Shown here: in pieces, positions 4,629 to 56,823 of the stretch
How the letters are laid out: each line of letters opens with the position of its first letter
Position numbering within the stretch: the stretch's first letter is position 1
DNA from: Gammaproteobacteria bacterium
GTDB lineage: Bacteria > Pseudomonadota > Gammaproteobacteria > JAURND01
Length of the DNA stretch: 64,000 nucleotides
Assembly (NCBI GenBank): GCA_035546635.1
Contig: DASZWJ010000019.1
Location: forward strand, 37,386 to 101,385
Reading direction: 5' to 3'
Notes under the pieces: model-generated
What the model was told of the DNA's origin: nothing
Seen by the model: the letters and a program-made list of their open reading frames with translations, nothing else
Database searches by the model: none
Translations under genes and position numbers: made by a program

Positions 4629-5450
4629 ATGATTAATATTCAATCGCTAAAATTGATTTACGGCACTGCATGGAAAGGTGCTAAAACTACAGGACTTGTC
4701 AAGCAAGCCGTTGCAGCTGGGTTTTTTGCAATCGATACGGCCAATCAACCTAAGCATTACTCAGAATCACTAGTGGGTGAAGCCTTGTTGCAATTGCAAG
4801 CCACGGGTGTTCATCGTCAGCAATTATTTTTGCAAACTAAATTTACACCGGTGGATGGGCATGATGAAAATATTCCTTATAATCCATCCGAAGACTACAC
4901 CACGCAAGTCCTCACTTCATTCCATAGTTCGTTAAAGCATTTGCATACTGATTATCTGGACTCCTATTTATTGCATGGTCCTTATGTCGCAGTTGGACTC
5001 AGTGATGCAGATTGGCAAGTTTGGCAAGCCATAGAATCATTATATGATTCTGGTCAAGCTAAATTAATTGGCGTTAGCAATGTGAATATTAAGCAGCTGG
5101 AGTTATTAACTAATCATGCTCGAATAAAGCCTATGGTAGTGCAAAATCGCTGTTTTGCTAGTTATGGATGGGATAAGCAAGTTAGGGAGTTTTGTTGTGC
5201 CAATGATATTATTTATCAAGGATTTTCGTTGTTAACTGCTAATTTACCCGTATTAGAAAGTGCGGCTGTGTCAAACCTTGCAAATCATTACAATAAAACT
5301 CCTGCGCAAGTTATATTTAGATTCGCTCAACAACTTGGAATCCTTCCCTTAACAGGCACTACCGATTTGCAACATATGCGCGAAGATTTACACCTCGATA
5401 ATTTTACATTGACGGAAGAAGATAAAATGATGATTGGGAAATTGAGTTGA
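4629..5450 (+). CDS. aldo/keto reductase family oxidoreductase
   Basis: AKR motifs IDTANQPKHYSESLVGEAL and LIYGTAWKG. The ORF is open from 4563, but the ATG at 4629 (MINIQS) is the likely start. Confidence 0.7.
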   Translation: MINIQSLKLIYGTAWKGAKTTGLVKQAVAAGFFAIDTANQPKHYSESLVGEALLQLQATGVHRQQLFLQTKFTPVDGHDENIPYNPSEDYTTQVLTSFHSSLKHLHTDYLDSYLLHGPYVAVGLSDADWQVWQAIESLYDSGQAKLIGVSNVNIKQLELLTNHARIKPMVVQNRCFASYGWDKQVREFCCANDIIYQGFSLLTANLPVLESAAVSNLANHYNKTPAQVIFRFAQQLGILPLTGTTDLQHMREDLHLDNFTLTEEDKMMIGKLS

Positions 5451-5497
5451 TTTTTTTCTGTCTATGTCAGTGAAGCCTTAGAGATTTAGGTGCAAAT

Positions 5498-7105
5498 ATG
5501 CCAAAAAATCTGAAAAATTTTTGGGTTTCCTTATTTTTCCTAATCGGAATATTCTTGCCCAATGCTTATTCCGCAGTTGATGCACAACAACAGGAAGTTA
5601 AAGCCAATTCTTTGCTGGCGCAACATACTCCGGTATTAAATTATATTCAAAAGACCTGGCCTACTTTAACTCGTTCACATGCACAATTATTACAAGCAGC
5701 AATTGATCCTAAATTAATTCCCTCTCCGCAAAAATGGATCGTATATATACCGACGCAGGAATCTTTAAGCAGAATTTCTACTGAATTAAAAACACAAATG
5801 TCTTCTGATGATTTTCAGAAAATTGTCCTTAAGAAATTACCCGCTGATATCAATCATGTTCCTCCTGGTTTACTTTATTTGCCTTACCCTTATGTGGTTC
5901 CGGGCGGGATGTTTAATGAAATGTATGGTTGGGACAGTTATTTTATCATTTTAGGATTATTAAAATCTCAACAAATCACGTTGGCTAAAAATATAGTGGA
6001 TAATTTTATTTATGAGATAATTTTTTATGGAAAAATATTGAATTCCAATCGGACATTTCATTTAGAAAGATCACAACCGCCGTTGTTAACTGAAATGATT
6101 TTGGCGGTTTATGATAAAACTCAGGATAAAAATTGGCTAAAATCTACTTTGCCGGCAATTGAAAAATTTTATACTTACTGGATAACCCCACCGCATTTAA
6201 TTTCTGAATTAGGTTTATCACGTTATTATGCTGAGGGCAAAGGTCCCGCGTATGAAGTGACTATGCCGGATAAATTGACGGGCAAACTATTTTATAATGA
6301 GGTGAAAAATTATTACCGTCAATATCCTGTATCCGACTACGATGTCAACTTATATTATAATAAAGAGAAAAATCAATTAACCGAGTTTTATTATATTAAC
6401 GATCGAACATTGAGAGAGTCAGGGTTTGATTTAACAGGACAATATGGGGCTTTCGGTGCGATGATTACAGATTATGCTCCAGTGACGCTTAATTCTTTGT
6501 TGTACAAAATGGAAGTAGACACCCAAAAAATTTACACTCTTTTAGGAGATTTAAACCAAGCGCAAATATGGCAACAAAGAGCGAAAAAACGCGCAGCGCT
6601 GATGAATCGCTATCTGTGGGATAATATGACAGGTTATTATTTTGATTATAATTTTAAAACCAAACAAACTAGGCCTTATATTGACGCCAGTACTTTTTAT
6701 CCGTTATGGGCAGGTGTTGCTTCTTCTGAACAAGCCAAGCGGATCGTAGAGAATTTACCTGCATTAGAGACGCATTGTGGTGTGGTTACGAGCCGTTATG
6801 TCACGCATATGCAGTGGGATGCACCTTATGGTTGGGCGCCTTTACAGTACTTTGCTGTCACGGGACTTGCCAATTATGGATATGATAACGATGCGCGCCG
6901 GATTGCACAGAAGTGGAATCATCTAATTGATGAAGATTTTGCTAAGCATGGAAAGATTGTAGAAAAGTATGACTTGTATCGTTGTAGCTCAGAGTTAACC
7001 ATTCGCTACGGTTATTCCAGCAATGAGGCAGGATTTGGCTGGACAAATGGTGTCTATTTGTTTTTTAGGGATTTTTTGAATCCAGGCCGAGACCAGCTAC
7101 AGTAA
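5498..7105 (+). CDS. treA: periplasmic trehalase (GH37)
   Basis: Signal peptide, then trehalase signature 1 (PGGMFNEMYGWDSYF) and signature 2 (QWDAPYGWAPLQ). Confidence 0.9.
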   Translation: MPKNLKNFWVSLFFLIGIFLPNAYSAVDAQQQEVKANSLLAQHTPVLNYIQKTWPTLTRSHAQLLQAAIDPKLIPSPQKWIVYIPTQESLSRISTELKTQMSSDDFQKIVLKKLPADINHVPPGLLYLPYPYVVPGGMFNEMYGWDSYFIILGLLKSQQITLAKNIVDNFIYEIIFYGKILNSNRTFHLERSQPPLLTEMILAVYDKTQDKNWLKSTLPAIEKFYTYWITPPHLISELGLSRYYAEGKGPAYEVTMPDKLTGKLFYNEVKNYYRQYPVSDYDVNLYYNKEKNQLTEFYYINDRTLRESGFDLTGQYGAFGAMITDYAPVTLNSLLYKMEVDTQKIYTLLGDLNQAQIWQQRAKKRAALMNRYLWDNMTGYYFDYNFKTKQTRPYIDASTFYPLWAGVASSEQAKRIVENLPALETHCGVVTSRYVTHMQWDAPYGWAPLQYFAVTGLANYGYDNDARRIAQKWNHLIDEDFAKHGKIVEKYDLYRCSSELTIRYGYSSNEAGFGWTNGVYLFFRDFLNPGRDQLQ

Positions 7106-21965: not shown

Positions 21966-21972
21966 TTTGCGG

Positions 21973-22001
21973 TTGACATTGGTAGCCTATAACTTTAAGA
22001 T
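21973..22001 (+). promoter_or_regulatory. sigma70-like promoter of the ilv leader/operon
   Basis: TTGACA (21973-21978), a 17-nt spacer, then TAAGAT (21996-22001), about 40 nt upstream of the leader ATG. Confidence 0.5.
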
Positions 22002-22038
22002 ACCAAGATTATATACTTCAAATAAATTAGAGTACAAA

Positions 22039-22134
22039 ATGTCTTCATATAAAAACATAGCCATTCGCATTTTTAACCTTATTATCGTGGTGATTCTTAG
22101 TCGCGAGGTGCGGGGCTGTGTCTTGAAACGATAG
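22039..22134 (+). CDS. ilv operon leader peptide (Ile/Val/Leu-rich)
   Basis: 31 aa, MSSYKNIAIRIFNLIIVVILSREVRGCVLKR. The central block has 6 Ile, 2 Val and 2 Leu, and the 31-aa peptide has 3 Val and 4 Leu in total. It sits immediately upstream of the attenuator and ilvB. Confidence 0.75.
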   Translation: MSSYKNIAIRIFNLIIVVILSREVRGCVLKR

Positions 22135-22154
22135 ACGAACAGCAGGGTAAAAGA

Positions 22155-22190
22155 CCCCGCACCTCTTCCAGAGATGCGGGGTTTTTTTTT
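22155..22190 (+). terminator. ilv attenuator (rho-independent terminator)
   Basis: CCCCGCA...TGCGGGG stem followed by a T9 run. Leader segment GAGGTGCGGGG (22105-22115) is perfectly complementary to CCCCGCACCTC (22155-22165), giving a mutually exclusive antiterminator. Confidence 0.8.
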
Positions 22191-22221
22191 GAGCAGAATT
22201 TTTTTTAGTAAGGTGGATCTT

Positions 22222-23919
22222 ATGCAAATGACAGGTGCACAAGCTCTGTTGCAATGCTTATTGCATGAAGGAGTTGACCTTCTATTTGGTTATCCCGGCG
22301 GGGCTATCATGCCCACTTATGATGCTTTGTATGATGTGCGTTCGGAGTTGCGTCATATTCTAGTGCGCCATGAACAAGGTGCAGCGCATGCAGCGCAAGG
22401 TTACGCACGGGTAACAGGTAAGACGGGAGTATGTTTGGTAACTTCTGGGCCGGGAGCCACTAATTTAATTACTGGTATCACCGATGCTATGCTGGATTCT
22501 ACCCCGATTGTTTGTATCACTGGGCAGGTAGCCAGCTCCTTTTTGGGCACTGACGCTTTTCAGGAAGCAGATATTATTGGTATGTCATTGCCCGTCACCA
22601 AATGGAATTATCAAATTACTGATGCAGAAGAAATTCCAAAAGTAGTGGCTAAGGCATTTTATATTGCCCGCCATGGCCGACCCGGTCCGGTACTGATAGA
22701 TATCACGAAAGATGCACAATTTGGTCCATTAAATTTTTCCTATCAAAAATACATACCTGTCGATCCTCCGGTTCATCATCAACCACTTTCACAACAATCA
22801 TTAATTAAAGCAGCTGAGTTAATTAATCAATCGCATCGCCCATATATTTTAGCGGGGCAGGGAGTTTTATTAGCACATGCTGAACAAGAGCTACTAGATT
22901 TTGCAGTGAAAGCCAATATACCGGTTGCTTGTACTTTATTAGGATTGTCGTCATTTCCCATGGATCATCCATTGTATGCGGGAATGCTAGGAATGCATGG
23001 CAATTATGGGTCTAATTTATTAACAAATGAAGCCGATGTCATTATTGCAGTGGGAATGCGTTTTGATGATAGAGTCACGGGTAATTTGGCTAATTATGCC
23101 AAACAAGCCAAAATTATCCATATTGATATTGATCCCGCGGAGATCAATAAAAATGTCCAAGTTGAAGTGGGACTGTTGGCGGATGCTGGATATGCGCTAA
23201 GAGAATTAATGCCTTATTTAGATGGTCAACGCAGCCAGGATTTACATGAAGCTTGGGTAAATCAATTTAAAGAATGTTATCAAACTGAATATGACCAGGT
23301 CATCGTTCATGAAATTCACCCTGATGGTAAAAACATCAAAATGGCAGAAGTCATTCATGAACTATCCAATAAAACAGAAGGTAAAGCCATTTTAGTCACA
23401 GATGTAGGCCAGCATCAAATGGTGGCCGCACGTTATTATCGGTTTATGCAGCATAATTCTTTAGTGACTTCAGGTGGGCTTGGCACCATGGGTTTTGCCT
23501 TGCCAGCGGCAGTGGGCGCCAAACTCGGCGATCCTAACCGGCACGTGATTGCAATTATTGGTGATGGCGGCTTTCAAATGAATATACAAGAACTGGGTGT
23601 TATCTCACAAGAAAACTTGCCAGTGAAAATTATCATACTGAATAATGGCCATTTGGGTATGGTGCGGCAATGGCAGGAATTATTTTTTGAACAACGCTAT
23701 TCATTTGTACAGTTGAAAAATCCTGATTTTATAAAAATTGCTGAGGGTTATGCGATTTCTGGCTGTAGAGTGAAAGACAGTGCTGAATTTCGTTCCGCAC
23801 TGGATACGATGTTAAATTTTGATGGGCCGTATTTGTTAGAAGTGGTTGTGGAAATGGAAGAAAACATTTTCCCTATGGTGCCATCGGGTTGTGGTGTCGG
23901 AGAAGTCCGATTATCTTAA
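22222..23919 (+). CDS. ilvB: acetolactate synthase large subunit (biosynthetic AHAS)
   Basis: ThDP-binding motif (IGDGGFQMN) and FAD-binding middle domain. RBS AAGGTGG precedes it. Confidence 0.95.
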
Positions 23920-23932
23920 GAGGTATGTTTAA

Positions 23933-24190
23933 ATGCAATATATTTATGCAATTTCAGTAGTCACTGAAAATACTTTGCGGGTTTTGCAACGTTTAGCGGG
24001 TATATTTGCGCGTTATCGCTTGAATATTGAACAGATGAATGTCTTTGAAACCGGCAATCGGGGGACTTCGTATTTTAATATTATTGTGCACAGTAATGCT
24101 AAAACCGCAGATCGCGTGATAAAACAGCTGGAAAAAATTTTTGAATTGAAAGAGGTTAAGATAGTCAGTCAGATACCATTGTCATCTTGA
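23933..24190 (+). CDS. ilvN: acetolactate synthase small (regulatory) subunit, short ACT-only form
   Basis: 85-aa ACT domain (ISVVTENTLRVLQRLAGIFARYRLNIEQMNV). Confidence 0.85.
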   Translation: MQYIYAISVVTENTLRVLQRLAGIFARYRLNIEQMNVFETGNRGTSYFNIIVHSNAKTADRVIKQLEKIFELKEVKIVSQIPLSS

Positions 24191-24346: not shown

Positions 24347-25417
24347 ATGCCAACCATGCAATTTGGTAGTGTTTCTGAAAAAGTAATCACCCGTGAAGAA
24401 TTTCCATTAACTAAAGCTAAAGAAGTATTAAAAGACGAAGTGATTGCTATTATTGGCTATGGCGTACAAGGCCCTGCTCAAGCGCTCAATTTAAGAGATA
24501 GTGGATTTAAAGTAATCATTGGTCAAAGGCAGAATAGCCCTTCTTGGCAACAGGCTATTAAAGATGGCTGGATTCCAGATAAAGATTTATTTAGTATTGA
24601 AGAGGCTTGTGAAAAGGCGACTTTTATTTGTTATCTCTTGTCTGATGCGGCGCAGATTCAAGTATGGCCGACGGTGAAAAAATATTTGACTCCAGGAAAA
24701 ACCCTTTATTTTTCTCATGGTTTTGCTGTGACTTACCATGACCAAACTCAAGTATTACCTCCTAAAGACGTGGATGTCATATTAGTAGCACCTAAAGGTT
24801 CTGGCCGTAGTGTGCGCCGATTATTTTTAGACGGCAAAGGTATTAATTCCAGTTATGCGGTTTTCCAAGATGCTACAGGCAAGGCTGAACAAAAGGCATT
24901 GGCATTTGGCATTGGTGTAGGTTCTGGATACCTATTTCAAACTGATTTTAAGAAAGAAGTTTACAGTGATTTATTCGGAGAACGTGGTGTGTTGATGGGC
25001 GCTTTGGCCGGAGTCATCAAGGCACAATATGAGGTGTTGCGCAAAAATGGTCATTCTCCCACTGAAGCGTTTAATGAAACCGTAGAAGAGCTGACACAAA
25101 GTTTGGTGCCGCTGGTCGGTGAAAATGGCATGGATTGGATGTATGCCAATTGTTCTGCTACTGCACAGCGTGGGGCATTAGATTGGTTGCCAAAATTTCA
25201 GCAGGCGGTATTACCGGTTTTTGAAGCACTTTATAAAAGTGTGGCCGATGGTAGTGAAACGGCGCGGGTGATTGAAGCGAATGGTCAGGCAAATTATAAA
25301 GAAAAATTAAATAAAGAACTTGAGCAAATGCGCAATGAGGAGCTCTGGCAAGTAGGCGCTAAGGTTAGGGCGCTGCGACCGGAGTCGGAGAGTAAGAAAA
25401 GTACTATTACCTCATAA
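24347..25417 (+). CDS. ilvC: ketol-acid reductoisomerase (class I, short form)
   Basis: NADPH Rossmann motif (IAIIGYGVQGPAQALNLRDSG). Length is 356 aa. RBS AGGAG precedes it. Confidence 0.95.
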   Translation: MPTMQFGSVSEKVITREEFPLTKAKEVLKDEVIAIIGYGVQGPAQALNLRDSGFKVIIGQRQNSPSWQQAIKDGWIPDKDLFSIEEACEKATFICYLLSDAAQIQVWPTVKKYLTPGKTLYFSHGFAVTYHDQTQVLPPKDVDVILVAPKGSGRSVRRLFLDGKGINSSYAVFQDATGKAEQKALAFGIGVGSGYLFQTDFKKEVYSDLFGERGVLMGALAGVIKAQYEVLRKNGHSPTEAFNETVEELTQSLVPLVGENGMDWMYANCSATAQRGALDWLPKFQQAVLPVFEALYKSVADGSETARVIEANGQANYKEKLNKELEQMRNEELWQVGAKVRALRPESESKKSTITS

Positions 25418-25435
25418 ATAAGGAGATATTATATT

Positions 25436-25461
25436 TCCTTCTCCCACAAGGGGAGAAGGAT
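25436..25461 (+). promoter_or_regulatory. intercistronic stem-loop after ilvC (no T-run)
   Basis: Hairpin with 9-bp arms (CCTTCTCCC / GGGAGAAGG) around an ACAAG loop. It is related to the CTCCCACAAGG palindromes of the 35.7-kb element. Confidence 0.5.
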
Positions 25462-25488: not shown

Positions 25489-27285
25489 ATGTATCAACTT
25501 TTAGATTTTGCCACTAAAAAACCAGTAACTCCACGCGGTTTAGTATTCACCGGCGAAGACTCTCCCTGGGAAGTAGTCATGGACATTGCTGCGATTAAAA
25601 AGCAGCTCAATCTGGATTACTTTAAAATCGCTCCACCAGGATTGTCGAAATATTTGCCTTTTATGCCGATTCAGCAAAGTGCTGAATTTATTTCTTTGCG
25701 TGAAACGGCCACGCCGCTTATAAAAAGTAAAACCATAGGTAAATTATTAGGTTTAGATTTATATTTCAAAGTTGAGGGAAAAAATACCACCGGTTCATTT
25801 AAAGATCGGGGCTCGGCGGTGGATATTTCTGTCGCGCGCGAATTTGGCGCAAGTAGTATTATTTTAGCTTCAACAGGTAATATGGCTGCTTCCTGCGCTT
25901 GTTATGCAGCCGCAGCAAAAATTCCATGCTTTATTTTGGTGCCAGAAGGTGTTGCGGTAGCCAAGTTGGCACAGGTGATTGCTTTTGGCGGACGTATTGT
26001 GCAAATCAAAGGTCATTATAATGACGCAGCACGTCTAGCGGAATCTCTTGCCGAAAAAATGGGATTTTATTTGGCGGGGGATTACGCTTATCGTGTTGAA
26101 GGACAAAAAACCGCCGCCTTTGAAATTATTGACCAATTATTTTTTCAGCCACCTGATCTGGTGGTCGTTCCCATTGGTTGTGGCACTAATATTACCGCCT
26201 ATAAAAAAGGCTTTAGTGAATATCGAGAGTTGGGTTTAATCGATAAAATACCACAATTGATGGGCGTAGAAGCTGAAGGTGCGGCGGCGGTGGTCAATAG
26301 TTTTGAAAAGCATGTCACGACTATTCAACCATTGGAAAGCGCTAATACCATTGCTACGGCTATCGCTGTGCCCAATCCTTTAGATGGCATAAAAGCTTTA
26401 GATGCGATTTATTCAACCGGTGGCAGTGCAGTGGCTGTTAGTGACCAGGAAATTTTACAAGCACAATATTTGTTATCAACTGAAGAAGGCTTGTTTGTTG
26501 AAAGTGCTGCTGCAGCTACCGTTGCCGCATTGCTTAAAGCGGGTCGCCAGCAAAAACTTGTTTCTGGCAAGGTAGTCTGCGTTTTAACTGGTGATGGGCT
26601 TAAAGATGCGAATGTGGTGTTAAAAGCCGCAATTAAACCGCCAACTATTTACCCGGATGAAAAAGCTTTTCTTTCGTTATATCAGAATAATTTCTTCAAA
26701 GGCAAGAGCATGATTTTTGTGGATAAAAATCAAGTGCTGTTTGCATCCGAACCGAGTATTTCCCAAATCAAAGAACAACTCGCTTTGCTGTTTGAGGCAG
26801 ATTATTCAGAAGAATATTTACTGAAAATTAAATCCATTCTTGGAAAATTTTTGCAAAAAGGTAAGGCGGTTACCGTTTCGGATTTTCAAGATTGCATACA
26901 AGATGCTTTAGAAACACCACAAAATAAACCGCAAGAAACCTTTGCGGTGGTAGATTTTGAAGTGACTACAGGCAAAGACCGTGCATCTGTAGCTTCGGTA
27001 ACGATAAAAATTGACGATAAAGAGCATAAAGCTACTGCTCAAGGGGTAGGTCCAGTAGATGCCGTGATTAGCGCTTTGACACATGCCTGTGCCGAAAGAA
27101 TTGTTTTTACTCTAACAGATTATAAAGTAGATATCCGCAGCCAAGGTGTTGATGCAGTGGTTTATGTGGAATTAAAGTTGGCCAAAGATCATTTTTATTC
27201 TTTGGGTCGAGGAACTTCACCGGATATTATTCAGGCTTCTATTGAGGCATTTGAAGAGGCGTATAATGGTTTTGTGGTAGCTTAA
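25489..27285 (+). CDS. threonine-synthase-like PLP enzyme fused to a C-terminal LeuA_dimer (IPMS/citramalate-synthase allosteric) domain
   Basis: Residues ~60-400 match short-type ThrC (GKNTTGSFKDRGSAV, RVEGQKTAAFEI, GCGTNITAY, TIATAIAV, TGDGLKD). Residues ~480-598 match the LeuA C-terminal regulatory domain (AQGVGPVDAV, SQGVDAVVYVEL, GRGTSPDIIQASIEAFEEAYN). An alternative start at 25579 (MDIAAIK, after GGGAAG) is possible. Confidence 0.85.
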   Translation: MYQLLDFATKKPVTPRGLVFTGEDSPWEVVMDIAAIKKQLNLDYFKIAPPGLSKYLPFMPIQQSAEFISLRETATPLIKSKTIGKLLGLDLYFKVEGKNTTGSFKDRGSAVDISVAREFGASSIILASTGNMAASCACYAAAAKIPCFILVPEGVAVAKLAQVIAFGGRIVQIKGHYNDAARLAESLAEKMGFYLAGDYAYRVEGQKTAAFEIIDQLFFQPPDLVVVPIGCGTNITAYKKGFSEYRELGLIDKIPQLMGVEAEGAAAVVNSFEKHVTTIQPLESANTIATAIAVPNPLDGIKALDAIYSTGGSAVAVSDQEILQAQYLLSTEEGLFVESAAAATVAALLKAGRQQKLVSGKVVCVLTGDGLKDANVVLKAAIKPPTIYPDEKAFLSLYQNNFFKGKSMIFVDKNQVLFASEPSISQIKEQLALLFEADYSEEYLLKIKSILGKFLQKGKAVTVSDFQDCIQDALETPQNKPQETFAVVDFEVTTGKDRASVASVTIKIDDKEHKATAQGVGPVDAVISALTHACAERIVFTLTDYKVDIRSQGVDAVVYVELKLAKDHFYSLGRGTSPDIIQASIEAFEEAYNGFVVA

Positions 27286-27332: not shown

Positions 27333-28283
27333 ATGATATCCAAAATCGAAAAAACATTTCCGCTAGTGATTATTGTTGTGTCTGCACTGGCTATCTTTTC
27401 TCCCGAATTATTTCTTTGGATAAAACCCCATATCCCCATGTTTTTAGGCATAGTCATGTTCTCAATAGGCTTAACTCTGGAAACAGGTGATTTTGTTAAG
27501 GTGTTTAGTCTACGCTGGCAAATCGCAGCATTAGCAATACTTAAATATCTTATCATGCCGATTTTAGCTTATCTTATTGCCGTAGTATTTGGTCTATCGC
27601 AAACGGATTTTATGGGTTTGATAATCATTAGCGCTTGTCCTGGCGGCACTGCTGCGGCTGTCATGTCTTATTTATCCAAATCAAATGTTGTGTTGACTGT
27701 GGTACTCACATTGTTAACAACCTTATTGTCTCCCATTGTCACACCTATCATTATTTATGTATTTTTGCATAAATATGTACCCATCCCATTAACACAGATT
27801 GCCAGCACGATATTTTGGATTGTCTTATTTCCGTTATTTGACGGCTTAGTTTTAAGAAGATTATTGGGTAAAAAAGTCGAGGCGATCAAACCGGTTTTGC
27901 CTTTGGTATCCATGACAGCGATAACCTTATTGATCGCGTGTATAGTAGCAATGAATCACCAAAACATCCTGGCTTTACCATTTCTGGCAGGATTTGCCGT
28001 TCTAACAGACAATCTTTTGGGATTGACTATTGGTTACAGCATTGCCAAAAAACTCTTTGGTTTTAATGCTAAAAATTGCCGTTCAGTGGCCTTTGAATTT
28101 GGTATTTTGGATACAGGCATGGCGGTAGTCTTGGCAACTAAATTTTTTGGAGTTGCCACAGCACTTTGTGGTGCCTTGTTCAGTGCAATTCAGAATGTGA
28201 CTGGCGCGTGTTTGGTCAGAGTATTGCAAAGTGATAGCCAGCATCTAAATATACGGAGGAAAGATCATGAGGCAACTCAATAA
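27333..28283 (+). CDS. bile acid:sodium symporter (BASS/SBF) family transporter
   Basis: 316 aa with ~9-10 TM segments and the BASS fold ([14 protein letters not shown]). It overlaps the ilvD start by 17 nt. Confidence 0.7.
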
Positions 28284-29949
28284 ATATAGCGCGCATATTA
28301 CCCAACCCCGTTCGCAGGGTGCATCGCAAGCGATGTTATACGCAACTGGTTTGACGGAAACTGATCTGAATAAACCTCAAGTTGGCATAGCCAGCATGTG
28401 GTATGAAGGCAACCCCTGCAATATGCACCTGCAGGATTTAGCCAATATTGTCAAACAAGGGGTACAGGCAGCGGATATGGTGGGTATGCGTTTTAATACC
28501 ATTGGTGTGAGCGATGGTATCTCCATGGGTACGGAAGGCATGCGTTTTTCACTGCAATCACGTGATCTCATTGCTGATTCAATTGAAACGGTAATGAGTG
28601 CGCAGTGGTATGATGGATTGATTACCTTGCCAGGCTGTGACAAAAACATGCCGGGTTGTTTGATTGCTATGGGACGTTTAAACCGTCCGAGTCTGATGAT
28701 ATATGGCGGTACTATTAAAGCAGGTAAATTGGGTAAAGAATCACTGGATATTGTTTCTGCCTTTCAATGTTATGGTGAATATTTAAGTGGCAGAATCGAT
28801 GATAATCAGCGTAAAGCCATTATTCAACACGCTTGCCCAGGTGCTGGTGCCTGTGGCGGAATGTATACCGCGAATACCATGGCTTGCGCCATTGAAGCCT
28901 TAGGAATGAGTCTACCTTACAGCTCCTCTATGCCGGCCATCTCCGCCGAAAAACATCAGGAATGTCTGACAGCAGGTGCCGCAATGCGTTTACTGCTAGA
29001 ACGTGATATCAAACCGCGAGATATCATGACACGTAAAGCGTTTGAAAATGCTGTGGTATTAGTGATTGCTCTGGGCGGTTCCACCAATGCCGTTTTACAC
29101 TTGATTGCAATGGCGCGCACCGTCGATGTGTCGCTAACGTTGGATGATTTTCAGACCATCAGTGCACGTACCCCGCTGTTGGCGGATTTTAAACCCAGTG
29201 GTCATTTTGAAATGGAAGATTTGCACCAATATGGCGGTACTCCGGCGGTGATGAAAATGCTGCTGGAAGCGGGATACTTACATGGTGATTGTTTAACGGT
29301 GACGGGTAAAACCCTGGCTGAAAATTTAGCATCACTACCTGGGTTATCTAAAGGACAGCCAATTATTCACTCGTTAGATCACCCGCTGAAATCAACGGGA
29401 CATTTGAGAATTTTATATGGCAATCTTGCAGAAAAAGGCGCTGTGGCTAAAATTACCGGTAAGGAAGGATTACGTTTCAGCGGCCCCGCCCGAGTATTTG
29501 ACTCAGAAGATGATATGGTTCATGCTCTTGAAGAAAAAAAGATTAATAAAGGCGATGTGGTGGTCATCCGTTACTGTGGTCCTAAAGGCGGTCCTGGTAT
29601 GCCAGAAATGTTGAAGCCTACTTCGGCGATTATGGGGGCAGGTTTAGGCAAAGATGTGGCCTTGATTACAGATGGTCGTTTTTCCGGTGGTTCGCACGGA
29701 TTTATTGTTGGCCATATCTGTCCTGAAGCTCAGGTAGGCGGTGTGATTGCCCTGATTCAAGAGGGCGATCGTATTGAAATTGACGCTGAAAATAATACCT
29801 TAACCGTGGATGTGAGTGAGGCGGAATTAAATGCACGGCGTGCCAAGTGGGTGATGCCGTCTTATAAAGTGACGCAGGGCACTTTGTATAAATATATTAA
29901 GAATGTTGCATCAGCCCAATTAGGCTGTGTCACTGATGAAAATGTATAG
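28267..29949 (+). CDS. ilvD: dihydroxy-acid dehydratase
   Basis: IlvD/EDD motifs ([33 protein letters not shown]). Confidence 0.95.
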
Positions 29950-29958: not shown

Positions 29959-30861
29959 ATGCAAACAACTGAATCTATCTGGTTCAATGGCAAAATGGTT
30001 CCCTGGGATGAGGCGAAAGTTCATGTGCTGACCCATAGCTTACATTATGGTGGTGGTGCATTTGAAGGCATACGCTTCTATAAAACCCCTAAAGGTACAG
30101 CGATTTTTAAATTGAAAGAGCACATTAAGCGCTTATTATATTCAGCCGGTGCGTTAAAAATGTCTTTACCTTATTCCCAAAAAGATATTGAAGCTGCGGC
30201 CATTGAAGTCGTGCGGATTAATAAATTGGAAGAAGGATATATTCGACCAATTATCTTTTTTGGCTATGGCAAAATGGGCGTCAATCCCGTGGGCAGTCCT
30301 GTCGATATTGCGATTGCTTGTTGGCCTTGGGGCGCTTATTTGCCGCATGATGCAGTCGATATTAAAACCAGCGAATTTATTCGTATTCATCCAGACTCCA
30401 CGATAGTAGATGCGAAACTAACCGGACATTATTTAAATGGTATTTTGGCGTCACTTGCCATACAGGGTACGCATTACCATGAGGTATTATTTTTGGATAG
30501 CGAAGATTTTATTTCCGAAGGTGGCGGTGAGAATTTTTTCATTGTTAAAGATGGCGTGTTGTACACCCCGCAGTTGGGTACGATCTTAGCTGGTATCACA
30601 CGAGAAACCATTATGCAGCTCGCTCAAGATATGGGTATAAAAGTAGTGCAGAAAAATATTACCCTGGATGAAGCTTATGCAGCGGATGAGGCATTTTTTA
30701 CGGGTACGGCTGCAGAAGTGACGGCAATTCGTTCTATTGATGACAAAGCAATCGGTGCGGTGCAACCAGGTTCGGTGACGACGCGGATCAAAACGGCTTA
30801 TATGGATTTGGTACATGGTGGGAATCCTAAATATGCGGAAAGTTTGACTTATGTTAAGTGA
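29959..30861 (+). CDS. ilvE: branched-chain amino acid aminotransferase (class IV)
   Basis: Fold-type IV motifs (LHYGGGAFEGIRFY, EGGGENFFIV). Confidence 0.9.
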   Translation: MQTTESIWFNGKMVPWDEAKVHVLTHSLHYGGGAFEGIRFYKTPKGTAIFKLKEHIKRLLYSAGALKMSLPYSQKDIEAAAIEVVRINKLEEGYIRPIIFFGYGKMGVNPVGSPVDIAIACWPWGAYLPHDAVDIKTSEFIRIHPDSTIVDAKLTGHYLNGILASLAIQGTHYHEVLFLDSEDFISEGGGENFFIVKDGVLYTPQLGTILAGITRETIMQLAQDMGIKVVQKNITLDEAYAADEAFFTGTAAEVTAIRSIDDKAIGAVQPGSVTTRIKTAYMDLVHGGNPKYAESLTYVK

Positions 30862-30896
30862 AGAGCCGCTGTCATTATCTTAGGAAAAAAGTAACG

Positions 30897-51169: not shown

Positions 51170-52122
51170 AAGGTGTTTCAGATAAAACTAAGGCTGCCAT
51201 TTGTTTAACTTTTTGTGTTGTTTCATGGGCATCCGCTTTTGTGGGTATTCGCATAGGGCTTAAAGGATATAGTCCTGGCAGTGTGGCTTTACTGCGTTAT
51301 TTAATTGCATCAATGGGTATGTTGTTTTTATATTTGTTTTTTTCTAAACGCGATAAGCCAGCTTTAAAAGATATGCCGCTGATTTTTTTTACCGGTGTCG
51401 TTGGGTTTGGAATTTATAACATCGCGTTAAACTATGGTGAAATAACCGTCTCTTCTGGCATAACAGGGTTTATTATCAGTCAGATGCCGGTTATCGTCAC
51501 ATTATTAGCACCGTTGTTATTGAAAGAAAAAATTGCTAAAAGTGCTTGGGTTGGATTAGGGGTGAGTGTGGTTGGCGTGGGTTTAATTGCCATTGCACAT
51601 CGAGGCGATGGCAGCGGAAGCAGTTTGCAGGGTAATCTGGATCTTGGCATTTGGTATTTAATCATCGCAGTTTTTTGCGGTGCTATTTATGCGGTGTGCA
51701 ATAAAATTCTAACACCTAAATATCATCCCATTGAATTGACCGCCTATACTATGTGGAGCGGTACTTTCATATTGTTATTCTATACACCCACGTTATGGAC
51801 AGAGGTTAAAACAGTGTCTATGAGTGCTACGTTGGCATGTGTTTATTTAGGTGCATTTCCTGGGTTTATTGGCTATTTAGCTTGGAGTTATGCGCTAAGG
51901 TATATGCCAGCTTCGCGCGCTTCAAATTATTTATTCTTGATGCCACTGGTGGCGACTGGTTTGGGGTGGTTGTTATTGGGTGAGGTGCCTAAATTATTGG
52001 CACTTTGTGGTGGTGTTGTGGCTTTGGTGGGAGCAATCATTGCAACCCAATACAAGGGTAAAGGATATAAAAAAACGCAAGATATGAATTATATTTTAAA
52101 CAGGCAAGCACCCCATGAATGA
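51166..52122 (+). CDS. DMT-superfamily (EamA-like) transporter
   Basis: 10 TM segments with two EamA repeats. ATGA-coupled to ribF and overlaps thrA by 8 nt. Confidence 0.75.
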   Translation: MKGVSDKTKAAICLTFCVVSWASAFVGIRIGLKGYSPGSVALLRYLIASMGMLFLYLFFSKRDKPALKDMPLIFFTGVVGFGIYNIALNYGEITVSSGITGFIISQMPVIVTLLAPLLLKEKIAKSAWVGLGVSVVGVGLIAIAHRGDGSGSSLQGNLDLGIWYLIIAVFCGAIYAVCNKILTPKYHPIELTAYTMWSGTFILLFYTPTLWTEVKTVSMSATLACVYLGAFPGFIGYLAWSYALRYMPASRASNYLFLMPLVATGLGWLLLGEVPKLLALCGGVVALVGAIIATQYKGKGYKKTQDMNYILNRQAPHE

Positions 52123-54574
52123 AATCTCCAATCCCATAGAAGTCCATAAATTTGGTGGCAGTAGTTTAGCAACGGCAGCGCATTTTCGTGCTGTGCAAAA
52201 TATTGTGCGCGGCAATCGAACGGCTATTGTTGTATCCGCAAGCGCCGGTATCACTAATCAATTGCAGGCATTGTTAAATTTGGCCTGCCAGCAGCAGGCA
52301 TATCACGAAAAATTAGCGGACATAAAACAGTTTCAACACGACATCATCCAGCATTTGCTCGATGCTGACCCACAATGCCAAGAGATGGTGAGTATAATCA
52401 ACAGTGACTGCGACGCGATAGCAAACCTCTTGCGTACCACGCAACTACTAGGCAGCTATAATACGCAAGTGCAAGATAAGGTATTGGGTTATGGCGAGTT
52501 ATGGTCAGCACAAATCCTGGCAGCATTATTAAACCGTGAAGCCGCTACGTTATTTATCGATGCATCTAAAATATTAATTACTTATCGCAAACACAAGCAA
52601 CAATATATTGACTGGGAGCATAGTCAGCAGCTGCTAGATCCATTATTGCAGTCTGCAGATTTTCAACATTTAGTGATTACTGGATTTATCGCCACTAATG
52701 CAGAACACCAGTTTGTTACCTTAGGGCGCAATGGTAGTGATTATTCTGCAGCTATATTTGCGCGTCTATTGCATGCAGAAAAGCTGATTATCTGGACTGA
52801 TGTCGATGGAATTTACAGTGCAGATCCTAATAAAGTTCGTTCTGCATTTCCTTTGCCGGAACTCTCGTATGAAGAAGCTTTAGAGCTTGCTTATTTTGGT
52901 GCGAAAGTGATTCATCCGCAGACCATATTTCCAGCTATCAATAATAATATTCCCATTTATGTAAAACACAGTGGAAACCCTTTAGCACCTGGAACTAAAA
53001 TCTCAGCAAAATGCCAGACTACTGACTATTTAGTAAAAGGTTTAAGCTGTATTGATGATGTCGCTTTGATCAATATAGAAGGCTCAGGCATGGTTGGGGT
53101 TTCAGGTACGGCAACTCGCGTGTTTCAAGTGTTATACCAGGGAGGCATTTCAGTTATTCTGATTTCTCAGGCTAGTTCTGAACATTCTATTTGCTTTGCA
53201 GTTAAGCAAGATCAGGCGAATCAGGCACAGGAGTTTCTGCAGGAACAGTTTCAGTTTGAAATTGGCCAGCAATTAATTAAAGGGATTACTATCGATAAAA
53301 ATTGTTCAGTTTTAGCGGTAGTTGGCGATGGTATGGTCGGTCACCAGGGGGTGGCAGGTAAATTATTCAATACGCTGACCAAGGCGAATGTCAATATCAA
53401 AGCGGTAGCGCAAGGATCATCAGAGCGCAATATCTCTGTTGTAGTGGAACGTCTCGATATTTATAAAGCGCTACGTGCGGTGCATTCCGGTTTTTATTTG
53501 TCGAGCAAAACATTATCTATTGGTTTAATTGGTCCAGGTCAGGTTGGAGCGACGTTATTGCAGCAAATAGCTGATACCGCCCCCCAGTTACAGCACAAGC
53601 GTAAAGTTAATTTACAGGTGCGCGGTATTATCGATTCTAAAAAAATGTTATTGGCGGATAGCAATATTGATCTGAAGCAATGGCAATCACAACGTGATAG
53701 TGTAGCCACAACCGCGAATATGGAAGATTTTATCAATCATATTGCTGCGGATGATATGCCGCATGCGGTCATTATCGATTGCACAGCGAGCGCAAAGATT
53801 GCTGATCTCTATCCGCATTTTATTGCTCGCGGCCTACATATTATTACTCCTAATAAGCGTGCTAACTCAGGAAATTTTAGTTTTTATCAGGAATTGCATG
53901 CTTTTGCGCAACAAAAAAATCGTTTTTATTTATATGAGACAACGGTTTGTGCGGGTTTGCCGGTTATTAAAACCTTGCAAGATATTGTTGCTACTGGTGA
54001 TGAAGTATTGAGTATTCAAGGAGTAGTGTCGGGGACACTCAGTTATATATTTAGTCAGCTTGGCATGGGACAAAAATTTTCCTCCATCGTACGTGAAGCT
54101 AAGCGGCAGGGTTATACGGAACCTGATCCGCGTGATGACTTATCTGGAATGGATGTGGCGCGCAAATTTGTGTGTTTGGCGCGGGAGTTGGGGCATAACT
54201 CGACTTTAGAAAGCTTGTCTATTACTAGCCTGGTTCCTGCGCCATTGCAACAGGTGAGTGCTGAAGAATTCTTGGAGCGTCTGCCTGAGTTTGATGAGCA
54301 AATACATGCATCATTGGAGCCTATGTTAGCGCGGGGAGAAAAGCCGCATTATGTGGGTACCATAGATGCTAATGGTAGTATTCATATTGCAATTGCAGGA
54401 TTTGGTCAAAATCATCCGTTTAGCCGTTTGCAGGGCACTGATAATATGCTGATTTTTACGACACGGCGTTATCAACCACAGTCTTTGGTGATACAAGGTC
54501 CAGGTGCCGGTACTGAGGTGACGGCAGCGGGGATTTTTGCGGATTTACTGCGATTGGTTACGGCTTTAGATTAA
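52115..54574 (+). CDS. thrA: bifunctional aspartate kinase / homoserine dehydrogenase
   Basis: N-terminal aspartokinase (KFGGSSLA), two ACT domains and C-terminal HSDH (GLIGPGQVGATLL). Confidence 0.95.
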   Translation: MNEISNPIEVHKFGGSSLATAAHFRAVQNIVRGNRTAIVVSASAGITNQLQALLNLACQQQAYHEKLADIKQFQHDIIQHLLDADPQCQEMVSIINSDCDAIANLLRTTQLLGSYNTQVQDKVLGYGELWSAQILAALLNREAATLFIDASKILITYRKHKQQYIDWEHSQQLLDPLLQSADFQHLVITGFIATNAEHQFVTLGRNGSDYSAAIFARLLHAEKLIIWTDVDGIYSADPNKVRSAFPLPELSYEEALELAYFGAKVIHPQTIFPAINNNIPIYVKHSGNPLAPGTKISAKCQTTDYLVKGLSCIDDVALINIEGSGMVGVSGTATRVFQVLYQGGISVILISQASSEHSICFAVKQDQANQAQEFLQEQFQFEIGQQLIKGITIDKNCSVLAVVGDGMVGHQGVAGKLFNTLTKANVNIKAVAQGSSERNISVVVERLDIYKALRAVHSGFYLSSKTLSIGLIGPGQVGATLLQQIADTAPQLQHKRKVNLQVRGIIDSKKMLLADSNIDLKQWQSQRDSVATTANMEDFINHIAADDMPHAVIIDCTASAKIADLYPHFIARGLHIITPNKRANSGNFSFYQELHAFAQQKNRFYLYETTVCAGLPVIKTLQDIVATGDEVLSIQGVVSGTLSYIFSQLGMGQKFSSIVREAKRQGYTEPDPRDDLSGMDVARKFVCLARELGHNSTLESLSITSLVPAPLQQVSAEEFLERLPEFDEQIHASLEPMLARGEKPHYVGTIDANGSIHIAIAGFGQNHPFSRLQGTDNMLIFTTRRYQPQSLVIQGPGAGTEVTAAGIFADLLRLVTALD

Positions 54575-54584
54575 GAGAATAAAT

Positions 54585-55514
54585 ATGCATGATTTACAAA
54601 CTGTCACTGCCTATGCGCCTGCAACTTGCGGCAATGTGATTGTTGGTTTTGATATTTTAGGGTTAGCTATCTCAAATGTTGGTGACAAAGTCACATTGAC
54701 GCGTCGTCAAGATAGCGCTTTAGTCATTACACATATTTCTGGCATAGATTCTCTACCGACTGATCCCAAGCAAAATATTGCTTCAGCGGTGATAGCGCAG
54801 TTATTGGCCGATCTCAATCTCAATTGGGGCTTTGATATTGAGTTACATAAAGGGATTCCTTTAAGCTCAGGTTTGGGTGGTTCTGCGGCATCGGCAGCCG
54901 CTGCATTGATGGCTTTGAATCAGTTTTTGCCTACACCGTTATCACTCACGCAGTTGGCGCATTATGCTATGTTGGGAGAAGCTTTATGCAGCGGTCAGGC
55001 ACACCCTGATAATATTGTGCCGGCATTGTATGGTGGTATTACGTTAATTACAGAGCAGAATCCGATTCAGGTCGTGTCGCTGCCTATTCCTGATATTGTT
55101 TGTGTGTTAGTGCATCCGCATTTGGAATTAACCACGCGCAAAGCACGTAGTATTTTAGCTGCTAGCGTACCGTTGCATGCCCATTGTGTGCAATCTGCTT
55201 ATCTCGCTGGTTTTATTAGTGCGCTCTATCAAAAGGATTTAAACTTAATAGCACAATCCTTGCGAGACGTCATCATAGAACCGCAACGTGAGCAATTAGT
55301 ACCTGGTTTTTCTGCTGTTAAAAAGGCGGCATTGGCGAAAGGAGCATTAGGTGCGTCTTTATCAGGTTCAGGTCCAACCGTGTTGGCGTTTGCGCGTGAC
55401 GCAATGCAAGCAGAACAAGTAGGACTAGCTATGCAGGCGGCATTTGCTAAATGTGGTATTACTAGTAATATATATTTATCGCCGATAAGTCAGCAGGGGG
55501 CGTATGTGATGTGA
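54585..55514 (+). CDS. thrB: homoserine kinase
   Basis: GHMP kinase motif (PLSSGLGGSAASAAAA). Confidence 0.9.
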   Translation: MHDLQTVTAYAPATCGNVIVGFDILGLAISNVGDKVTLTRRQDSALVITHISGIDSLPTDPKQNIASAVIAQLLADLNLNWGFDIELHKGIPLSSGLGGSAASAAAALMALNQFLPTPLSLTQLAHYAMLGEALCSGQAHPDNIVPALYGGITLITEQNPIQVVSLPIPDIVCVLVHPHLELTTRKARSILAASVPLHAHCVQSAYLAGFISALYQKDLNLIAQSLRDVIIEPQREQLVPGFSAVKKAALAKGALGASLSGSGPTVLAFARDAMQAEQVGLAMQAAFAKCGITSNIYLSPISQQGAYVM

Positions 55515-55548
55515 TTAAATTCATATAAAGAAATAAGGAGCAAGTTTC

Positions 55549-56823
55549 ATGCAATTTCATAGCACTGAAAATCAACAACCCCACTATGATTTTATATCAG
55601 CCGTGTTAAGTGGATTAGCAAAAGATGGTGGGTTATATGTCCCTGATGCATTTCCAAAACTCCAGCTTGATACATTTTCTCTATCTTCCTACCCTGAGTT
55701 TGCCAGCCAATTATTAAAACATTTTATAAGCGCACCACTGCAAAATGATTTGCAAGTCATGTGTCAACAAGCTTTTAACTTTGCAGTACCTAATACGCAA
55801 ATAAACGCAAATACCTGGATGTTAGAATTATTTCATGGGCCGACTTTATCATTTAAAGATTTTGGTGCCCGTTTTCTAGCCCAATGTATGGCGCGTATTC
55901 CTACAAATAAACCATTAACAATTTTAGTCGCCACTTCCGGTGATACCGGTTCTGCAGTTGCCAGTGCATTTTTTCAACAGCATCCAACACGAGTCATTGT
56001 ACTTTTTCCACGTGGAAAAATTTCTTTAAGACAACAGCAACAAATCACTTGCTGGCAGGACAATATATTGGCGGTTGCTGTGGAGGGTGCATTTGATGAT
56101 TGTCAACGTATAGTTAAAACAGCATTTAGCGATTCGAGCTGGCAAAGTAAATATCAGCTGAGTACTGCCAACAGCATTAACATCGCCCGTCTTTTGCCAC
56201 AAATTGTTTATTATGCCTATACCAGTTTACAGTTTCAGCAGCAAAAGGGTCAGAGTGTAGGTTTTATTGTGCCATCAGGCAATTTGGGCAATGTCACGGC
56301 AGCCTATTGGGCGAAACAGCTTGGATTTCCACTGCGTGAAATTGTGATTGCAACTAATGCTAATCGCCCGCTCACACATTATCTGGAAACAGGTAAATAC
56401 CAACCTTTCCCGACGCAAGCTACGCTTGCTAATGCAATGGATGTGGGTAATCCCAGTAATTTTGCGCGATTAAAGGATTTATTCCCAGACTTTACTGATT
56501 TTAAATCTCAGGTGCACGCAATACGTGTTGATGATGAGGGAATTAAACAGGCAATTACTCAGGCTTATCAAAAAGAACAAGTGCTGATCTGTCCGCATAC
56601 CGCAACTGCCTATTATGCACGTCAGCAGTTGAATGATAAACCGTGGATTATTGTAGCAACGGCTCATCCATGCAAATTTGAAAATGTGATTGAACCCATT
56701 ATTAGCAAACCGTTACCACCTGCGCCAGAGCTGATGGCGTTATTGAAACGTCAGCAGAAATTTGAAACGATCCTTCCTGAGTTGTCGGCATTAACTAAAG
56801 TGGCCGATAAATATTTTTCATAA
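55549..56823 (+). CDS. thrC: threonine synthase (long type)
   Basis: FHGPTLSFKDFGARFLAQ (compare E. coli FAFKDFGGRFMAQ). 424 aa. Confidence 0.9.
   Translation: MQFHSTENQQPHYDFISAVLSGLAKDGGLYVPDAFPKLQLDTFSLSSYPEFASQLLKHFISAPLQNDLQVMCQQAFNFAVPNTQINANTWMLELFHGPTLSFKDFGARFLAQCMARIPTNKPLTILVATSGDTGSAVASAFFQQHPTRVIVLFPRGKISLRQQQQITCWQDNILAVAVEGAFDDCQRIVKTAFSDSSWQSKYQLSTANSINIARLLPQIVYYAYTSLQFQQQKGQSVGFIVPSGNLGNVTAAYWAKQLGFPLREIVIATNANRPLTHYLETGKYQPFPTQATLANAMDVGNPSNFARLKDLFPDFTDFKSQVHAIRVDDEGIKQAITQAYQKEQVLICPHTATAYYARQQLNDKPWIIVATAHPCKFENVIEPIISKPLPPAPELMALLKRQQKFETILPELSALTKVADKYFS

Follow-up and report, generated by a model that had tools for sequence, protein, structure and literature searches.

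The stretch analyzed here, a 64,000-nucleotide segment of contig DASZWJ010000019.1 from a gammaproteobacterial metagenome-assembled genome (MAG) that we refer to as the window, carries in its isoleucine/valine (ilv) operon a gene encoding a 598-amino-acid fusion of a threonine synthase (ThrC)-like, pyridoxal phosphate (PLP)-dependent domain with a LeuA/CimA-type regulatory domain. The deposited entry, HVV68243.1, is named threonine synthase. From sequence and context we propose, with a probability of about 60%, that the fusion is a feedback-regulated, isoleucine-inhibited L-threonine ammonia-lyase which arose from ThrC, supplies 2-oxobutanoate and replaces the threonine dehydratase IlvA. A sequence-only reading of this DNA had suggested a ThrC paralog under branched-chain amino acid feedback that feeds isoleucine synthesis, and this suggestion gains support from the ilv context and the lack of IlvA at the sampled loci, together with RidA neighbors, a dismantled phosphate site, an isoleucine-type effector pocket, and an attenuator with an isoleucine-rich leader. 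That reading had left the substrate between threonine and O-phosphohomoserine; the loss of phosphate ligands favors the former and disfavors the latter.

Domain layout, active site, and regulatory half of the fusion

The fusion is encoded by a single open reading frame (ORF) whose start codon is backed by a conserved N-terminus, with Y2 and F7 invariant in homologs (Table 1). The motifs quoted beforehand are all present in the product, namely GSFKDRG (amino acids [aa] 102 to 108), RVEGQKTAAFEI (aa 202 to 213), and TGDGLKD (aa 367 to 373) in the catalytic part, and GVGPVDAV (aa 519 to 526) and GRGTSPDIIQASIEAFEEAYN (aa 573 to 593) toward the C-terminus. In Pfam, PALP matches aa 68 to 368 (E = 2.5e-69; score, 234 bits; cutoff, 35), and LeuA_dimer (PF08502), which had been predicted for the C-terminal domain, matches aa 461 to 594 (E = 8.3e-27; 94.1 bits against a gathering threshold of 24.9); both assignments are far beyond chance. 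Pfam detects no HMGL-like domain in the fusion, the N-terminal partner of LeuA_dimer being PALP, and the NCBIfam 2-isopropylmalate synthase (LeuA) models align with the protein from about aa 415 to 437 onward. A linker of some 60 aa had been anticipated between the two halves; a spacer is indeed there, but it measures about 85 to 90 aa between the Pfam domains and is predicted to form a folded helical subdomain, whose family-specific conserved residues include F394, L397, Y398, F403, F418, P422, K457, and G458. The AlphaFold2 model, built from a 44-sequence alignment (predicted local distance difference test score [pLDDT], 86; predicted template modeling score, 0.78), places this helical linker at about aa 391 to 475 and gives the C-terminal domain six strands and two helices, with pLDDT values of about 70 to 89.

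The catalytic part is about 40 to 50% identical to the short-type ThrC structures 2ZSJ, 6CGQ, 2D1F, and 1UIM, and it can be aligned end to end with 2ZSJ, 6CGQ/6NMX, 2D1F, and 1UIM at E values of 1e-66 to 1e-75. Foldseek comparison with ThrC structures yields template modeling scores (TM-scores) of 0.84 to 0.87 on the target at 39 to 41% identity, and over the core the HMMER alignments show a visibly higher identity. Next in structural similarity come serine racemases, aspartate racemase, and serine dehydratases, and no solved structure found by Foldseek spans beyond the N-terminal half of the fusion (query-normalized TM-score at most 0.57). The claim of a complete short-type ThrC fold is borne out for the fold itself, whereas the site that accommodates the substrate phosphate in ThrC is incomplete.

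Family models place the protein near ThrC without assigning it to any specific ThrC group. It scores 225 bits with the broad NCBIfam thrC model TIGR00260 (cutoff, 167) and misses all the specific ThrC equivalogs (the best, NF006050, at 260 bits versus 303; NF004170 at 226 versus 421), a pattern that other members of its clade share. Models of IlvA and TdcB stay below their cutoffs (TIGR01127, 123.5 versus 378.75; NF006674, 67 versus 577; NF006390, 98 versus 421), and no Thr_dehydrat_C (PF00585) match is obtained in Pfam even at E values up to 1. Cysteate synthase (TIGR03844) was also considered and is ruled out by score for the fusion (74 bits versus 325); for two archaeal stand-alone relatives, P0155 and P0173, TIGR03844 is not among the matches at E values up to 1e-40.

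Residue correspondences were set by alignment with 1UIM, in which K61, T88, N154-S155, R160, and N188 are equivalent to K105, M132, G197-D198, R202, and C231 of the fusion. We take T88, N154, S155, R160, and N188 to be the residues that hold the substrate or product phosphate in Thermus ThrC, a site said to have been described by Omi and colleagues in 2003. By sequence, the fusion replaces four of these five residues (T88M, N154G, S155D together with a loop deletion, and N188C). We then compared 67 sequences, comprising 54 members of what we call the GDY clade, 12 canonical short ThrCs, and the long ThrC of the window. M, G, and D at the positions of T88, N154, and S155, together with the one-residue deletion, occur in 54/54 clade members, and T88M, N154G, and S155D are common to all 30 aligned fusions; the G-D-Y loop and R202 are invariant in the clade, whereas all canonical ThrCs have N-S in the loop. 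Conversely, T, N, S, and R are kept in all 13 canonical ThrCs (the 12 short ones plus the long one of the window) and N188 in 11 of them, the long ThrC of the window retaining the full set of T, N, S, R, and N. Most stand-alone relatives still have N at the N188 position, but most fusions have C, V, M, Y, or F there. Such conservation in canonical ThrCs implies that these positions matter to ThrC irrespective of the roles that we assign to them, and the invariant Asp in place of a phosphate-binding Ser argues against a phosphorylated substrate.

This pocket bears directly on whether the enzyme might be a deaminating O-phosphohomoserine gamma-lyase, which would eliminate the phosphate and release the aminocrotonate as 2-oxobutanoate, in an isoleucine branch that bypasses free threonine and is regulated by the C-terminal domain. 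ThrC chemistry uses exactly this aminocrotonate intermediate, R202 is retained, thrB is in the genome so that the substrate is made, and the ilv context and RidA neighbors fit equally well; in addition, mammalian THNSL2, a ThrC homolog, was reportedly found by Donini and co-workers in 2006, in a study cited in PMC2748086, to degrade O-phosphohomoserine to 2-ketobutyrate. We nevertheless deem such a lyase quite unlikely, since four of the five presumed phosphate ligands are replaced and the invariant, acidic D198 should repel phosphate, and since the relatives in Nanohaloarchaea lie beside catabolic acyl-CoA synthetase genes, where a biosynthetic intermediate is an improbable substrate.

As for the regulatory half, a single-sequence phmmer search of the PDB with the C-terminal 204 aa gave no match, and a profile of the linker and C-terminal domain made from 20 diverse members matches one solved structure only, 3F6G/3F6H (E = 4.7e-13). 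3F6G is the PF08502 domain of CimA, a portable sensor specific for L-isoleucine, which in isolated form reacts to that amino acid but to neither valine nor leucine (PMC13381585); the PDB chain offset of +389 was set by the K463/T464 numbering of the same paper. L542, Y545, I549, and V558 of the fusion align with L451, Y454, I458, and V468 of the Leptospira interrogans citramalate synthase (LiCMS), and in the effector loop G519, G521, and D524 are invariant, while P522, V523, and A525 are invariant or nearly so. Y430, L451, Y454, I458, and V468 are presumably the positions that select isoleucine over leucine in LiCMS, the list of pocket residues reportedly going back to Zhang and colleagues in 2009. 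The residues of the fusion family at these five positions are V, L, Y, I, and V, which means that four are kept and Tyr430 is changed to Val; D431 and P493 of LiCMS are conserved in the family as well. Over nine pocket positions, six or seven match LiCMS, against three in the LeuA-like protein that is encoded beside a fusion gene. Because the pocket resembles the isoleucine-specific one of LiCMS, at a few residues, isoleucine is most likely the effector of the C-terminal domain.

Distribution and genomic context of the clade

The architecture is widespread. The best 120 matches to the full protein are 59 to 85% identical to it and all have both Pfam domains, and those among them that carry a name are without exception labeled threonine synthase; their hosts are Legionellales, Francisellaceae, Fangia hongkongensis, Cysteiniphilum litorale, Facilibium subflavum, and a Burkholderiales MAG. 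When representatives at the 50% identity level were searched exhaustively, about 15 more full-length representatives with both domains were recovered, at identities down to 37%, and 108 more fusion clusters were retrieved with the closest stand-alone relative as seed, mainly from Patescibacteria (Woesebacteria, Dojkabacteria, Peregrinibacteria, and Gracilibacteria). The fusion is also found in a Bdellovibrionales MAG. The survey that the sequence-only reading had called for therefore yields at least 228 fusion clusters at 90% identity.

Genomic contexts were sampled at 12 loci from at least three phyla, with about 20 kb per related locus (Table 1). The fusion lies in branched-chain amino acid (ilv/leu) clusters in 11 of the 12, and the placement seen in the window thus holds across genomes. 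No IlvA-type gene is present in any of the 12 contexts. The conserved clusters represent every step of isoleucine and valine synthesis except the one that forms 2-oxobutanoate, for which the fusion is the only candidate. A gene for RidA (PF01042) lies directly upstream of the fusion gene at locus L007 and within the cluster at L008, both from Patescibacteria; RidA acts on the 2-aminocrotonate/2-iminobutanoate set free by threonine dehydratase and hydrolyzes it. The L008 cluster also encodes, at positions 3996 to 5606 of that locus, a 536-aa synthase composed of HMGL-like and LeuA_dimer domains, the pocket residues of which are unlike those of both LiCMS and the fusion.

Within the window, where all ORFs of at least 150 aa and several smaller ones were scanned, no IlvA/TdcB-type dehydratase, CimA, LeuA, or RidA is encoded among the ORFs examined, in keeping with the earlier statement that a canonical IlvA is lacking there, and tblastn searches of the window with RidA and LeuA queries likewise gave none. 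The gene had been described as lying between ilvC and ilvD; it does belong to the ilv operon, but a transporter gene intervenes before ilvD. A separate, canonical long-type thrC was found as described, in a thrABC cluster about 25 kb downstream of the fusion gene.

These contexts can be set against the database annotation, according to which the fusion would be a second true threonine synthase whose activity responds to branched-chain amino acids. The passed TIGR00260 threshold, the name given by all sources, and the identity to ThrC structures, which rises over the core, agree with such a role. We hold it to be very improbable, in view of the failure at every specific ThrC equivalog cutoff, the lack of four of the five phosphate-site residues that both ThrC classes conserve, the canonical thrC in the same window, and the setting in ilv operons, with the fusion gene never adjoining hom or thrB at the 12 loci.

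The context bears equally on the possibility that the enzyme catalyzes some other PLP reaction in branched-chain amino acid metabolism under the control of these amino acids, for instance as a deaminase of serine or other hydroxy or substituted amino acids, an enzyme catalyzing elimination from O-acyl-homoserine, or a racemase or epimerase. Fold-type II enzymes change reaction type easily, racemases and dehydratases are the next structural neighbors of the catalytic domain, the pocket formed by M132, G197, D198, Y199, and C231 has no characterized counterpart, and R202 might accommodate a leaving group with a carboxylate, for example succinate. This possibility is nonetheless unlikely in our view, because the ilv clusters are complete but for the 2-oxobutanoate step, with the fusion as sole candidate for it, because adjacency to RidA points to an eliminase that releases an enamine, and because the parent enzyme ThrC already deaminates threonine.

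Besides the fusions, many stand-alone proteins of 350 to 440 aa share the STGNM and GDY..R.EG.K motifs; no dedicated NCBIfam model exists for them, and TIGR00260 alone is passed. An archaeal subgroup comprises proteins of Nanohaloarchaea, Aenigmatarchaeota, and Methanocella. In two divergent Nanohaloarchaea the stand-alone gene adjoins genes for both subunits (beta and alpha) of an ADP-forming acyl-CoA synthetase, an enzyme of the last, ATP-yielding stage of 2-oxoacid fermentation, while the neighborhood of the homolog in Methanocella conradii is uninformative. With such neighbors a catabolic deaminase fits better than a biosynthetic enzyme, which suggests a route from threonine or serine through 2-oxoacid and acyl-CoA to ATP in these reduced DPANN archaea. 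In a neighbor-joining tree the whole clade forms one group nested among the short ThrCs, and the fusions fall within its bacterial branch, where a few stand-alone sequences are scattered among them. Judged by these sequences, the remodeled core probably predates the fusion.

Organization and control of the operon in the window

The genes of the operon overlap or are separated by short gaps, with no convincing terminator between them. A promoter/terminator pattern scan returned sites no more numerous than in shuffled sequence, so the operon structure is derived from gene spacing and overlaps. Upstream of ilvB, a leader ORF that shares frame and stop with the listed ORF 21967..22134 encodes the peptide MSSYKNIAIRIFNLIIVVILSREVRGCVLKR and is followed by a terminator hairpin; the segment 22105 to 22116 (GAGGUGCGGGGC) is able to pair with 22156 to 22166 as an alternative. 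We predict from the sequence that this element is a classical isoleucine-rich transcription attenuator. Since the listed ilvB start (22174) falls inside the terminator, translation of ilvB probably begins a few codons further on. An isoleucine-rich leader is the pattern of the Escherichia coli ilvGMEDA operon, which contains ilvA, unlike the isoleucine-free leader of ilvBN. No leader or riboswitch known to Rfam matches the operon at gathering thresholds, the sole match being a tRNA at 39852 to 39923.

The short form of ilvN seen in the window also occurs in Legionellales (L015) and Fangia (L003), and the full-length form is present at L010 and on the Woesebacteria contig. The transporter of the bile acid:sodium symporter (BASS) family has as its top NCBIfam match the ketopantoate/pantoate/pantothenate transporter PanS, below cutoff; it is not at this position at L001, L003, and L015, being peculiar to the operon of the window lineage, and it could carry a 2-oxo or 2-hydroxy acid of the pathway. 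The 71-nucleotide gap between ilvC and the fusion gene contains a perfect 10-bp inverted repeat (25436 to 25461; TCCTTCTCCC-ACAA-GGGGAGAAGG), which is no standard terminator because it has no U-tract and which may serve in the stabilization or processing of the mRNA.

From ilvE on (29959 to 39188), the ilv operon continues without obvious break into aromatic amino acid genes, forming an unusual super-operon for branched-chain and aromatic amino acids. The stop of ilvE is overlapped by aroA, which is followed by aroK, a gene for 3-deoxy-D-arabino-heptulosonate 7-phosphate synthase (aroG), aroB, a gene for an SBP_bac_3 protein, and aroC, and at the end by genes for a short prephenate-dehydrogenase-like protein and a class I/II aminotransferase. 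The tRNA at 39852 to 39923 is followed by a small island that extends to 44691. There, two paralogous proteins of about 290 aa with nucleotidyltransferase and HEPN domains are encoded on the minus strand (41821 to 42702 and 43816 to 44691), with a PIN-domain gene (42862 to 43248) between them, a content that resembles toxin-antitoxin or defense systems. Two very large ORFs lie at 10785 to 14303 (minus strand) and 45077 to 48625 (plus strand); one product has 1172 aa with ankyrin repeats, and the other has 1182 aa with a central Pyr_redox_2 segment as its sole Pfam match. Ankyrin-repeat proteins are typical of effectors in host-associated Legionellales-like bacteria.

Table 1. Features of the window and gene orders around the fusion gene (X) at the sampled loci; positions refer to the window unless another locus is named
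Feature	Positions	Strand	Remarks
Fusion gene	25489..27285	+	Single ORF, ATG start, 598 aa; ThrC-like PLP domain plus LeuA/CimA-type regulatory domain
Catalytic part, aa 1-380	25489..26628	+	N-terminal beta-hairpin extension, then fold-type II PLP domain
Linker subdomain, aa 381-460	26629..26868	+	Mostly helical, folded in prediction
LeuA_dimer (PF08502) regulatory domain, aa 461-594	26869..27270	+	Six strands and two helices in model
K105	25801..25803	+	PLP Schiff-base lysine in SFKDRG; equivalent to K61 of Thermus ThrC; invariant
M132	25882..25884	+	In STGNMAAS; replaces T88 of ThrC (STGNT)
Loop G197-D198-Y199-A200-Y201-R202	26077..26094	+	Replaces ThrC N154-S155-x-N157-P-x-R160, one residue shorter; R202 (R160) kept
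C231	26179..26181	+	In PIGCGTN; replaces N188 of ThrC (VGNAGN)
GVGPVDA effector loop, aa 519-525	27043..27063	+	Aligns with GDGGYDA (Tyr430/Asp431) of Leptospira citramalate synthase
Sigma-70-like promoter match	21973..22001	+	TTGACA-17-TAAGAT; top consensus match of the region only; upstream of leader ORF
Leader peptide ORF	22039..22134	+	31 codons; 6 Ile, 4 Val, 3 Leu
Predicted attenuator terminator	22150..22195	+	GC-rich hairpin, then nine U; minimum free energy -40.6 kcal/mol, z -2.2
ilvB	22174..23919	+	Acetolactate synthase large subunit; TIGR00118, 722 bits
ilvN-like	23933..24190	+	Short regulatory subunit, 85 aa; ACT domain alone, without ALS_ss_C
ilvC	24347..25417	+	Ketol-acid reductoisomerase
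BASS-family transporter	27333..28283	+	PanS-like; overlaps ilvD start
ilvD	28267..29949	+	Dihydroxy-acid dehydratase
ilvE	29959..30861	+	Branched-chain aminotransferase
thrA-thrB-thrC	52115..56823	+	Canonical; long-type ThrC with Thr_synth_N at 55549-56823
Context, window			Gammaproteobacteria MAG; ilvB-N-C-X-transporter-ilvD-ilvE
Context, L001			Gammaproteobacteria MAG; ilvB-N-C-X-ilvD
Context, L002			Bdellovibrionales MAG; ilvB-N-C-X
Context, L003/L004			Fangia; ilvB-N-X-ilvD
Context, L010			Counted with the Gammaproteobacteria; leuB-D-C / ilvB-N-C-X
Context, L015			Legionellales MAG; ilvB-N-C-X-ilvD
Context, Woesebacteria contig			ilvB-N-ilvD-aminotransferase-ilvC-X
Context, L008			Patescibacteria; leuA-like, leuB, leuCD / X-ilvE-ilvD-ilvB-ilvC-RidA
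Context, L011			Counted with the Patescibacteria; genes resemble L016; X-ilvE-ilvC-ilvB
Context, L016			Gracilibacteria; X-ilvE
Context, L007			Peregrinibacteria; leuB-like, PAP2-like gene, RidA, X
Context, L005			Burkholderiales MAG; X alone, near LysR regulator
Nanohaloarchaeal stand-alone gene and acyl-CoA synthetase	L012/L013 9165-11229; L014 9931-11939

Proposed function and its implications

The substrate, product, effector, and direction of regulation that we infer for the fusion can be combined into a mechanism. Its catalytic half descends from a short-type threonine synthase, an enzyme which already runs the step between threonine and the PLP-aminocrotonate in both directions and has a weak threonine dehydratase side activity; without phosphate, Thermus ThrC is said to turn the aminocrotonate intermediate only into 2-ketobutyrate, as reported by Murakawa and colleagues in 2011. 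With no phosphate bound, the fusion would neither take O-phosphohomoserine nor add water back to the aminocrotonate. Threonine would bind as the external aldimine and its beta-hydroxyl would be eliminated, possibly with D198 or Y199 acting as acid/base in the place of the phosphate. The 2-aminocrotonate released would decay to 2-oxobutanoate and ammonia, spontaneously or with the help of RidA where it is present, and the co-encoded acetohydroxyacid synthase, IlvC, IlvD, and IlvE would carry 2-oxobutanoate on to isoleucine. By analogy with LeuA and CimA, the C-terminal domains would dimerize, bind isoleucine at the dimer interface, and lower the activity through the helical linker, and transcription of the operon would additionally be attenuated in response to the charging of Ile, Val, and Leu tRNAs. 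In Bacillus subtilis, derepression of hom-thrCB lets the threonine dehydratase activity of the short-type ThrC rescue ilvA mutants (PMC8226366; bioRxiv 10.64898/2026.09.15.751699), and the ThrC of Microcystis deaminates threonine in vitro (PMC12172450). In light of these side activities, the evolutionary route to a deaminase appears short.

Compared with the short-type (class I) ThrCs of Thermus thermophilus (1UIM/1V7C), B. subtilis (6CGQ/6NMX), Aquifex (2ZSJ), and Mycobacterium tuberculosis (2D1F), the fusion has the same fold and a clear common ancestry, and it retains the SFKDRG lysine motif, the R.EGQKT motif, and the GLKD motif; it differs in the rebuilt phosphate positions, in the additional 220 aa of linker and regulatory domain, and in the location of its gene in an ilv rather than a thr operon. 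With IlvA (EC 4.3.1.19; PALP plus one or two ACT-like Thr_dehydrat_C domains) it would share the proposed reaction, and it shares the operon position and the logic of a catalytic domain followed by a C-terminal sensor, but the two are only distantly homologous within the PALP superfamily (about 21 to 23% identity to 1TDJ, 9D2Q, and 2GN0), and the regulatory module is LeuA_dimer and not ACT-like. The stand-alone, probably catabolic, and the regulated, biosynthetic forms in this clade would parallel TdcB and IlvA. PF08502, the layout of six strands and two helices, and the G-x-G-x-x-D-A loop are common to the fusion, LiCMS (3F6G/3F6H), and LeuA, and like CimA the fusion would control the entry step to 2-oxobutanoate; in the fusion, however, PF08502 sits on a PLP enzyme and not on an HMGL-like TIM barrel, and Tyr430 is changed to Val. 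Mammalian THNSL2 and the Microcystis ThrC are likewise ThrC homologs that yield 2-ketobutyrate instead of, or besides, threonine, yet unlike the fusion they have no LeuA-type domain and are not in an ilv operon; THNSL2 presumably acts on a phosphorylated substrate, and threonine synthesis is still the main activity of the Microcystis enzyme, in contrast to the role proposed here. Full-text literature searches turned up no description of the fusion or its clade, in accordance with the earlier remark that the architecture could not be tied to any characterized protein, and no curated NCBIfam model separates the clade.

A broader view, to which we give slightly less than even odds, is that the whole GDY clade, made up of archaeal and bacterial stand-alone proteins and the fusions, is a hitherto unrecognized class of threonine or serine ammonia-lyases derived from ThrC in which the Asp198 carboxylate replaces the phosphate pocket, with the fused form as the only 2-oxobutanoate source under isoleucine feedback control in Legionellales-like Gammaproteobacteria, Fangia/Cysteiniphilum, some Bdellovibrionota, and many Patescibacteria. 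On that view, hundreds of entries named threonine synthase would be misannotated, and predictions of isoleucine auxotrophy that start from a missing ilvA would be mistaken for these lineages.

Several points weigh against the assignment of the fusion as an isoleucine-inhibited threonine ammonia-lyase. For every clade member the case is built from sequence, context, and model comparison, and the roles of T88, N154, S155, R160, and N188 as well as the LiCMS pocket list enter it as background. Given the invariance of R202, the substrate may carry an anionic group. Among the matches listed, the NCBIfam LeuA models outscore any CimA model on the C-terminal part, so the argument for isoleucine as effector depends on a few pocket residues. 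The absence of IlvA-type genes applies to the 64-kb window and to about 20 kb per related locus, and that of CimA genes to the window; at one locus, in the Burkholderiales MAG (L005), the fusion lies outside any ilv cluster, and the LeuA/CimA-like synthase at L008 could by itself supply 2-oxobutanoate if it is a citramalate synthase. Finally, bootstrap support in the tree is modest (40/100 for monophyly of the clade and 13/100 for all fusions together), so that the fusion is only suggested to have arisen once.

If our assignment is correct, the fusion would represent a non-orthologous replacement of IlvA, a textbook allosteric enzyme, assembled from a ThrC side activity and a LeuA/CimA sensor. 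It would be a natural case of a PF08502 sensor on an unrelated catalytic fold, which is relevant to the engineering of allostery and the design of biosensors, and it would allow a clean check on product-assisted catalysis as a model for ThrC, under which an enzyme deprived of the phosphate site is expected to become a deaminase. A systematic misannotation as threonine synthase, by which metabolic reconstruction and the prediction of auxotrophy are led astray, would be set right. The gap in the isoleucine pathway would be closed in several little-studied lineages, host-associated Gammaproteobacteria and Patescibacteria among them.

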